From positions 119,460 through 183,459 of the forward strand of contig JBAYHR010000001.1 in assembly GCA_041666045.1 (NCBI GenBank): DNA of 64,000 nucleotides, in the 5' to 3' direction. This DNA is from Minisyncoccota bacterium. GTDB lineage: Bacteria > Patescibacteriota > Minisyncoccia > Phycocordibacterales > UBA9973. A program made the translations under genes and the position numbers. Of this stretch, positions 19,756 to 19,992 are shown piece after piece. How positions within the stretch are numbered: the first letter of the stretch is position 1; each line of letters begins with the position of its first letter. The notes under the pieces were generated by a model, which worked only from the letters and a program-made list of their open reading frames with translations, made no database searches and had not been told where the DNA came from.

Positions 19756-19826
19756 GGGCGATTAGTTTAGTGGTAGAACAACGGTCTCCAAAACCGTTGG
19801 CGGGGGTTCGATTCCCTCATCGCCCG
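19756..19826 (+). tRNA. tRNA-Trp (anticodon CCA)
   Basis: Acceptor GGGCGAT/ATCGCCC, anticodon stem-loop ACGGT-CTCCAAA-ACCGT, T-loop TTCGATT and discriminator G. Confidence 0.85.
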
Positions 19827-19830
19827 CAAT
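19809..19830 (+). repeat. 22-nt direct repeat copy 1 (tRNA-Trp 3' end plus 4 nt beyond it)
   Basis: CGATTCCCTCATCGCCCGCAAT is identical to 19971-19992. Confidence 0.8.
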
Positions 19831-19839
19831 AATAACGCA

Positions 19840-19870
19840 AGGACAGATAAATTCTGTCTGAGTGTTTTAT
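19840..19870 (+). terminator. hairpin terminator after tRNA-Trp
   Basis: GACAGA-taaat-TCTGTC followed by GTGTTTTATT. Confidence 0.45.
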
Positions 19871-19970
19871 TATGCGTGGAGATTAGGAATCGAAAGCCGG
19901 AGCACGACGGTGCGAGGCGGGGTCGCGAGTTTTACCAGCAGGTAAAAACTTGTGACCGAAAGTGTACTCA

Positions 19971-19992
19971 CGATTCCCTCATCGCCCGCAAT
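19971..19992 (+). repeat. 22-nt direct repeat copy 2
   Basis: CGATTCCCTCATCGCCCGCAAT is a perfect copy of the tRNA-Trp 3' end lying 140 bp downstream. The intervening 19871-19970 is locally GC-rich, roughly 50%. Confidence 0.8.

Follow-up and report, generated by a model that had tools for sequence, protein, structure and literature searches.

A candidate mobile, structured non-coding element that carries a copy of its host tRNA tail in Patescibacteria-type genomes

The tRNA-Trp gene and the sequence behind it

The window (here, the whole 64,000-nt stretch of DNA that was analysed) contains a tRNA-Trp(cca) gene, called at 19756-19826/7 by ARAGORN and scored at 72.7 bits by the Rfam tRNA model, in a neighbourhood that includes the L33, miaA, alr and ddl genes, among others. 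The same region is present, with 99.99% identity to the window, in assembly GCA_041671245.1. An exact search of the window finds two occurrences of the 22-mer CGATTCCCTCATCGCCCGCAAT, 19809-19830 and 19971-19992, and no more. The repeat runs from T-loop nucleotide C56 through the 3′ strands of the T-stem and the acceptor stem to discriminator G73, and then continues with CAAT; the first-pass annotation had given the same coordinates and the same span, from the T-arm half to 4 nt past the tRNA, and both are confirmed. It had also raised the prospect of a distant third copy that would delimit an island. There is none in the window, even when 3 mismatches are allowed, and matches occurred in 0 of 100 dinucleotide shuffles.

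The GC-rich block reported between the repeats is real, with a GC fraction of 0.50-0.55 across 19850-19999 (100-nt windows) against 0.30 for the window as a whole. Several other GC-rich stretches were flagged in the window, and the three that we read all lie within ORFs. The earlier statement that the segment has no ORF holds only in part: a mechanical call places a 44-aa GTG ORF at 19876-20010, overlapping the interval between the repeats, and this ORF is not supported as coding because substitutions across the family (compensatory pairs, helix length changes) are those of a structure.

The repeat and the GC-rich block would, under the explanation that we favour, constitute one non-coding element of ~165 bp lying directly 3′ of tRNA-Trp. 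Its parts follow one another as the X1 tail, a spacer hairpin, the 5′ arm X′, a conserved junction core and the X2 tail:

19756-19826, + strand: tRNA-Trp(cca), the host gene, without encoded CCA (ARAGORN; Rfam RF00005, 72.7 bits)
19809-19830, + strand: X1, the tRNA tail and first copy of the 22-nt repeat (exact repeat search)
19831-19872, + strand: spacer with an inner stem-loop at 19841-19859, terminator-like (terminator-like site; fold)
19873-19891, + strand: X′, the 5′ arm, imperfectly complementary to the tRNA tail (its partner is X2 in the MFE fold and, alternatively, X1)
19892-19970, + strand: conserved core (fold z −5.6 to −6.9; covariation among 75 homologues; RNAalifold; model R1)
19892-95, + strand: core segment J, GAAA
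19896-98/19916-18, + strand: core helix P2, then a GGA/GA internal loop
19902-05/19910-13, + strand: core helix P2b with a GACG loop; a GG linker follows P2/P2b
19921-36/19941-57, + strand: core helix P3, with 1 unpaired A in its 3′ strand and a C-AGCA-G loop; GAAA comes after it
19962-64/19969-71, + strand: core helix P4, optional
19971-19992, + strand: X2, the second tail copy and 3′ strand of closing helix P1 (repeat search; fold)
19994-20022, + strand: sigma-70-like promoter TTGACA-17-TATCAT (11/12) for the downstream gene, outside the element

The core is predicted to be a three- or four-way junction. Helix P1 pairs X′ (19873-19891) with X2 and encloses the GAAA, P2/P2b, the GG linker, P3, the second GAAA and the small P4; in the window copy P2/P2b reads GCC-GGA-GCAC-GACG-GUGC-GA-GGC. 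Folding and an Rfam scan had been proposed as checks of the interval. The fold of 19866-19992 is significant against shuffles (z −5.6, and z −6.9 once the spacer is added), and Rfam 15, with its HDV-like, hatchet, hairpin, twister, group I/II, SRP, 6S and RNase P models among others, gives nothing over 19828-19992 at E <= 10 besides the tRNA itself. A second pairing is available as well: X1, spacer and X′ make up an 85-nt imperfect palindrome, 19809-19893 folds as a single hairpin of −37 kcal/mol (z −7.8), and this X1:X′ alternative is the one adopted in the 301-nt MFE fold. The 3′ end of X′ is the family-wide GGAAUCG(AA), the complement of the T-loop/T-stem sequence UUCGAUUCC.

The promoter begins 2 nt past X2, and the element-free tRNA-Gln of the same window likewise stands directly before GTTGACA. 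At two related loci (L013 and L022) the bases CA follow X2, not X1, so that the CCA is completed there. Thus X2 and its flank are probably the native tRNA end, and the promoter marks the native flank. Two relatives (L002 and L004) encode an identical L33 and have tRNA-Trp directly before other genes, with no element. The lack of secE-nusG after tRNA-Trp had been taken as a sign of rearrangement; it loses that meaning here, as the closest element-free relatives also lack secE-nusG at this place.

We also note several other features of the window. A GC-rich hairpin at 19731-19752 lies 2-4 nt 5′ of the tRNA-Trp start; it is also present in the element-free relatives (L002 at ~6258-6280, L004 at ~2795-2815), its structure kept with compensatory changes in the versions UUCCCG..CGGGAA, CCAGCC-UUCG-GGCUGG and CGGCC-UUCG-GGCCG. 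The rpmG-trnW segment (19373-20589) is inverted relative to both flanks, the reference order in L002, L003 and L004 being frr-M50-ddl/alr > rpmG > trnW on one strand; we found no repeat that accounts for this inversion and no tie to the 22-nt repeat. The gene at 20144-20534, whose own strong promoter is the one at 19994-20022, consists of a short ATG ORF (MKKQKFY*) that leads into a 116-aa TTG ORF in another frame, encoding a small hydrophobic protein, and this arrangement could be a frameshift, a mis-start or a leader peptide. Elsewhere, tRNA-Ile(gat) (37427-37499, minus strand) has a partial copy of the tRNA 5′ end ~40 nt upstream, at 37500-37560, which continues in a D-arm-like manner (TTGAGCGTGTAGTTCGGTATAGGACGCTACGGG) and resembles a truncated 5′ pseudo-tRNA. 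A GC-rich, non-coding segment with GAGTCGTGGGTCCCCTGTCCTTATGACTCCGAGGGCGAAGGC at 48052-48145, between an obg-like ORF (47041-48051, minus strand) and the next ORF, reaches no Rfam gathering threshold and could represent a further structured RNA.

A structured family behind tRNA and tmRNA genes

A pattern derived from the core was searched in metagenome contigs, and a relaxed pattern in a collection of species-representative genomes. The core pattern found four metagenome contigs, on which the element stands behind tRNA-Trp (twice, once as a tandem pair), tRNA-Gln and tRNA-Met, and each copy on them terminates with the tail of its own tRNA. The relaxed pattern found 75 genome loci, all with Patescibacteria-type labels (Parcubacteria/Paceibacteria, Nomurabacteria, Saccharibacteria, Yonathbacteria, Minisyncoccia, Patescibacteria and unclassified bacterium) except for one short contig labelled ‘Bacteroidetes’. 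Both patterns came from the window copy with many core positions fixed, and so the diversity and host range of the family are underestimated and its apparent sequence conservation is inflated. The family was found here only in Patescibacteria-type MAGs.

A covariance model, R1, identifies 119 copies (E < 1e-3) in 597 kb of loci that were chosen for carrying the element, so these counts are not per-genome copy numbers. It matches the window exactly once (19881-19994, 95.8 bits), in keeping with the lack of a second core copy there, and finds no copy in L002-L004. Of the 119 copies, 76 follow a same-strand tRNA or tmRNA gene at a distance of at most 110 nt; 1.25% of strand positions would qualify by chance, which gives an expectation of about 1.5. 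When the distance is relaxed to 260 nt, which takes in second members of tandems, 89 of the 119 lie near a tRNA or tmRNA, and 10 more are at locus edges. The median distance from tRNA to copy is 54 nt, the element is oriented with the tRNA-sense strand, and the hosts comprise 22 tRNA anticodon types plus tmRNA, the latter confirmed by Rfam. Several loci have 3-5 copies. The tail repeat of intact copies measures 18-24 nt, always starts with CGATTCC and ends 0-5 nt beyond the tRNA; in the others X2 is truncated or diverged, and a few are orphans with no tRNA upstream. In one such orphan (L025:100-190) a TATAAT-like box is immediately followed by GTCAC, the final 5 nt of a tail that is otherwise gone, and this copy may be expressed from its own promoter.

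The core helices are selected for pairing on the sense strand. We examined this in an alignment of 75 copies (A1), in which the covarying positions were either free (N) in the search pattern or outside it. Standard pairs fill 94.9% of cells, and 19 of the 30 pairs have changed on both sides (332 cells). None of 500 shuffles reached the covariation score, sliding the pairing partners drops pairing to 35-49%, and RNAalifold predicts P2, P2b and P3 independently. A G.U pair at columns 45-74 is kept in 74 of the 75 copies, and elsewhere G.U is common and A.C rare, which indicates that the folding strand is the tRNA-sense strand, as RNA or as single-stranded DNA; the fold is unchanged with DNA folding parameters. 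Among unpaired nucleotides AAUCGAAAG, GGAG, G-CG, CGAG, GGGG and one A in the 3′ strand of P3 are invariant, in part an ascertainment effect since most of them were fixed by the search pattern. The suspicion that the interval is an undescribed element with a tRNA-like 3′ tail is thus borne out by fold, covariation and model R1, for a structured element.

Every X′ arm includes GGAAUCGAA, which is complementary to the universal T-loop/T-stem UUCGAUUCC, and the arm comes in two forms. Copies linked to Trp, Gly, Met and Pro, and some of those linked to Glu and Arg, have a continuous arm, whose further part is imperfectly complementary to the 3′ strand of the acceptor. The split arm of the Lys/Arg/Leu/Glu class consists of GUGAUY, whose pairing partner is the end of the tail, followed by a covarying hairpin and then by RGAAUCG. 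Pairing is stronger with the cognate tail than with non-cognate ones, both for X′:X2 (means of −17.5 vs −14.2 kcal/mol, p = 0.005) and for X′:X1 (−19.3 vs −13.9 kcal/mol, p = 6.5e-6). The outer part of the arm alone also distinguishes cognate from non-cognate tails (p = 0.007), with the Trp class driving the difference; only the Trp, Gly, Met and some of the Glu copies show a clear tRNA-specific outer arm, which is weak in the split-arm class.

At gathering thresholds, Rfam finds only tRNA and tmRNA in 16 related loci. BLAST searches of phage and plasmid records returned nothing beyond 24-nt matches attributable to chance, and viral contigs contained no match to the 22-mer, to a 21-mer of the core or to the relaxed pattern. 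Searches of the literature, including literal sequence strings, returned no description of the family, which is apparently undescribed within Rfam 15 and the searchable literature. A number of specific identities were also considered and dropped. SRP RNA, RNase P CR-I, the hairpin ribozyme and the HDV fold were set aside by eye, as was the hammerhead despite a CUGAGUG/GAAA resemblance. A T-loop intron was set aside too (no omega-G or BHB, and an intact tRNA upstream), and the published group I introns of Patescibacteria tRNAs are at position 35/36 and unrelated to the element. Neither ARAGORN nor Rfam finds a cloverleaf at 19860-19995 that would make it a second tRNA or pseudo-tRNA; only 19756-19827 is called.

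Other core types were seen in the same frame, in which X′ with GGAAUCGAA and an A or G stands on the 5′ side and CCGAUUCC precedes the tail; GGAAUCGAAAG...CCGAUUCC is common to those that we call ‘type II/III’. Such sibling cores are at L006 (~465 nt into the oriented extract), L014:227-330, L048:~3960-4063(-), L039:~2000-2084(-), L060:5827-5960 and 6290-6400, L065:~3190-3287(-), L074:~3780-3876(-) and L020:7651-7800. The ‘type II’ core has a long hairpin followed by GGUAUACUGUCCUCGUAGAGGAAGAUAUCC and no Rfam match, a short ‘type III’ core stands behind tRNA-Trp in L074, and hybrid cores carry an GAGCUUGGG...CCCAAGCGCAAG module. In L020 there is a copy whose P2 domain is duplicated. This suggests a superfamily of tRNA-tail cassettes.

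Target-derived tails, mobility and rival readings

One comparison concerns four copies in four different MAGs, behind tRNA-Lys (L010), tRNA-Arg (L011), tRNA-Leu (L075) and tRNA-Glu (L072). From the first post-tRNA base through spacer, arm and core they are 88-95% identical; their tails differ, the local version is repeated after the core, and the downstream flanks are unrelated. Thus the travelling unit is spacer, X′ and core, and X2 is made from the target; it always fits the local tRNA, even where the remainder of the element is 94-95% identical to one behind another tRNA. The spacer moves with the core in related copies. Occupancy is patchy, with 1 of the 5 tRNAs in the window bearing the element. 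One locus (L006) has two cores of different lineages in tandem behind a single tRNA-Trp, the distal tail decayed, and tandem arrays are present at L062, L053 and L077. Rare P2b variants are common to copies behind different tRNAs in 3 of the 5 genomes with two sampled copies. These comparisons suggest that the element is a mobile, non-autonomous unit, and the family comparison bears out the first-pass view that the repeat of the tRNA 3′ end is associated with insertion.

Clustering of neighbour proteins within +/-4 kb of 79 loci showed no recurrent recombinase, reverse transcriptase or transposase, only miaA-type synteny, and uncharacterised neighbour proteins gave no recombinase match. Mobility therefore rests on comparative inference, as no enzyme, excised form or empty/filled pair of near-identical strains was found. 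LAGLIDADG-type homing endonuclease ORFs occur a few kb away in four loci (L011, at ~-2.7 kb, and 3 others); they probably sit in rRNA or tRNA introns and are unrelated to the element.

The best explanation, which we consider likely, is a mobile structured element that homes to tRNA and tmRNA genes, its tail copy being duplicated from the target. Insertion would produce a second copy of some 19 bp of the target, between T-loop C56 and about C74. The duplication could arise by staggered cleavage and fill-in by a trans-acting enzyme, or by two template switches, one at the CGATTCC microhomology (element 3′ end) and one at the tRNA terminus (5′ end). The folded single strand, RNA or ssDNA, would then be what the insertion or maintenance machinery needs. 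In the predicted fold X′ clamps the tail copy and bears the invariant GGAAUCGAA, and the arm may serve as a guide that matches the target. Many spacers resemble efficient intrinsic terminators ahead of the core, and for this reason transcription of the core is uncertain and a role as RNA calls for caution.

A more specific proposal, which we regard as speculative and unlikely, is a guide-directed mobile nucleic acid, in which the arm (GGAAUCGAA plus the tRNA-specific distal part) would pick its tRNA/tmRNA-tail site by pairing and the core would be catalytic or recruit an enzyme; if true, this would be a programmable insertion system without protein genes. In a bolder variant, the RNA could provide a masked spare tRNA 3′ fragment with which tRNAs cleaved in the T-loop or the acceptor would be repaired.

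The element might instead serve its host, as a cis-acting RNA co-transcribed with the tRNA. The arm would have two possible partners, the real tail X1 and the decoy X2, and a core resembling an aptamer or a protein-binding site would decide whether the tRNA 3′ end is free, giving riboswitch-like control or a quality check of tRNA/tmRNA maturation. The fixed strand and the constant spacing, about 54 nt after the tRNA, fit such an RNA, as do the mutually exclusive X1:X′ (−37 kcal/mol) and X′:X2 pairings. The strongly conserved junction nucleotides closed by P1 are aptamer-like, and strong conservation of unpaired nucleotides would suit an RNA that benefits the host. We nonetheless think this unlikely, since the distribution is patchy (one in five tRNAs of the window, none in the nearest relatives), tandem, degenerate and orphan copies occur, different genomes have near-identical copies at unrelated tRNAs, the core is preceded by terminator-like spacers, and an arm downstream of the tRNA is unlikely to invade the folded molecule. 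A self-cleaving ribozyme that would process the tRNA transcript or free a tail fragment, in the manner of the HDV-like theta ribozymes, appears very unlikely. Theta ribozymes are reported to adjoin viral or phage tRNAs (PMC10879173), and the compact junction, invariant unpaired nucleotides and conserved G.U pair would be in keeping with a ribozyme. No Rfam ribozyme family matches, however, even at E <= 10, the helix order, read by eye, does not match the nested double pseudoknot of HDV (P1, P1.1, P2, P3, P4), whose cleavage site would abut the tRNA end, the core begins about 54 nt past the tRNA rather than at its end, and the target-derived tail copy would be left without an explanation.

The first-pass annotation had read the repeats as integrase attL/attR, with the interval as a possible excision scar or tiny integrated remnant. 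Indeed, tRNA and tmRNA genes are classical targets of integrases, a displaced fragment marks the element end (PMC4383910), and the repeat spans the T-loop start to beyond the tRNA end, as would be expected for a tyrosine integrase at the T-loop sublocation with 140 bp left as a deletion remnant or scar. The family comparison goes against this, and against the remnant of a larger island, and leaves the integrase reading highly improbable: the ~140-nt content between the repeats is alike wherever copies were examined, no recombinase or integrase lies in or near any copy and no viral, phage or plasmid match was found, and elements that are 94-95% identical bear different, locally matching tails at both ends. 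A classical attP x attB exchange would place a donor-type tail on one side, whereas local tails are found (alignment A2), and we reject it on that basis.

If our preferred explanation is correct, tiny-genome Patescibacteria host widespread gene-less structured elements that home to tRNA/tmRNA 3′ ends and copy the target tail, a combination of homing and tail copying that is unmatched among the described mobile-element and RNA families that we compared. The catalogue would gain a new, strongly covarying RNA/ssDNA fold, stray tRNA 3′ fragments in Patescibacteria genomes would be accounted for without integrases, and target choice by base pairing would become a testable question. The covariance model permits annotation of such loci and should prevent their being mis-scored as island boundaries.

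Comparison with known systems

With integrase islands and prophages (PMC4383910) the element has in common its tRNA/tmRNA targets, a repeat from the T-loop to past the 3′ end, an intact gene and tandem occupancy. It differs in that it has no integrase or cargo and is ~140 nt long with a covarying fold inside. In addition, both of its repeat copies come from the local tRNA, and this holds for near-identical elements behind different tRNAs too. Theta ribozymes resemble it as small structured RNAs directly downstream of tRNA genes (PMC10879173), whereas the element has another helix order (by eye), no Rfam ribozyme match, a separating spacer and a duplication of the tRNA tail.

Like MITEs and REPINs, the element is short, non-coding, multi-copy, hairpin-forming and dependent on functions in trans; no autonomous partner of the MITE type was seen within +/-4 kb of the 79 loci. 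Its inverted arms, unlike those of MITEs, are target-derived and differ from tRNA to tRNA, and its duplication is about 19-24 bp; it is set apart from MITEs and REPINs alike by strict target choice and by compensatory evolution of the core across deep divergence.

Casposons and CRISPR spacer integration, which use Cas1-type integrases, insert with an unusually long target-site duplication, and there are reports of casposons in tandem and at tRNA gene 3′ ends. The element differs from casposons in having no Cas1, casposon-type terminal inverted repeats or coding capacity, and it duplicates about 19 bp with the T-loop as the anchor.

Integron attC sites and CTX-phage attP(+) are strand-specific, imperfect, bulged hairpins with a stem that mimics the target; they form arrays and have no recombinase gene inside the unit. 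They recombine by half-site exchange (IntI or XerCD), with no target duplication and no sequence-conserved multi-helix core. The likeness lies in the strand-specific, bulged X′:X2 stem of the element, which imitates the target duplex and has wobble pairs of the sense strand only, and in the element's own arrays and lack of an internal recombinase gene; the difference is that the element shows a full target-derived duplication and a conserved multi-helix core.
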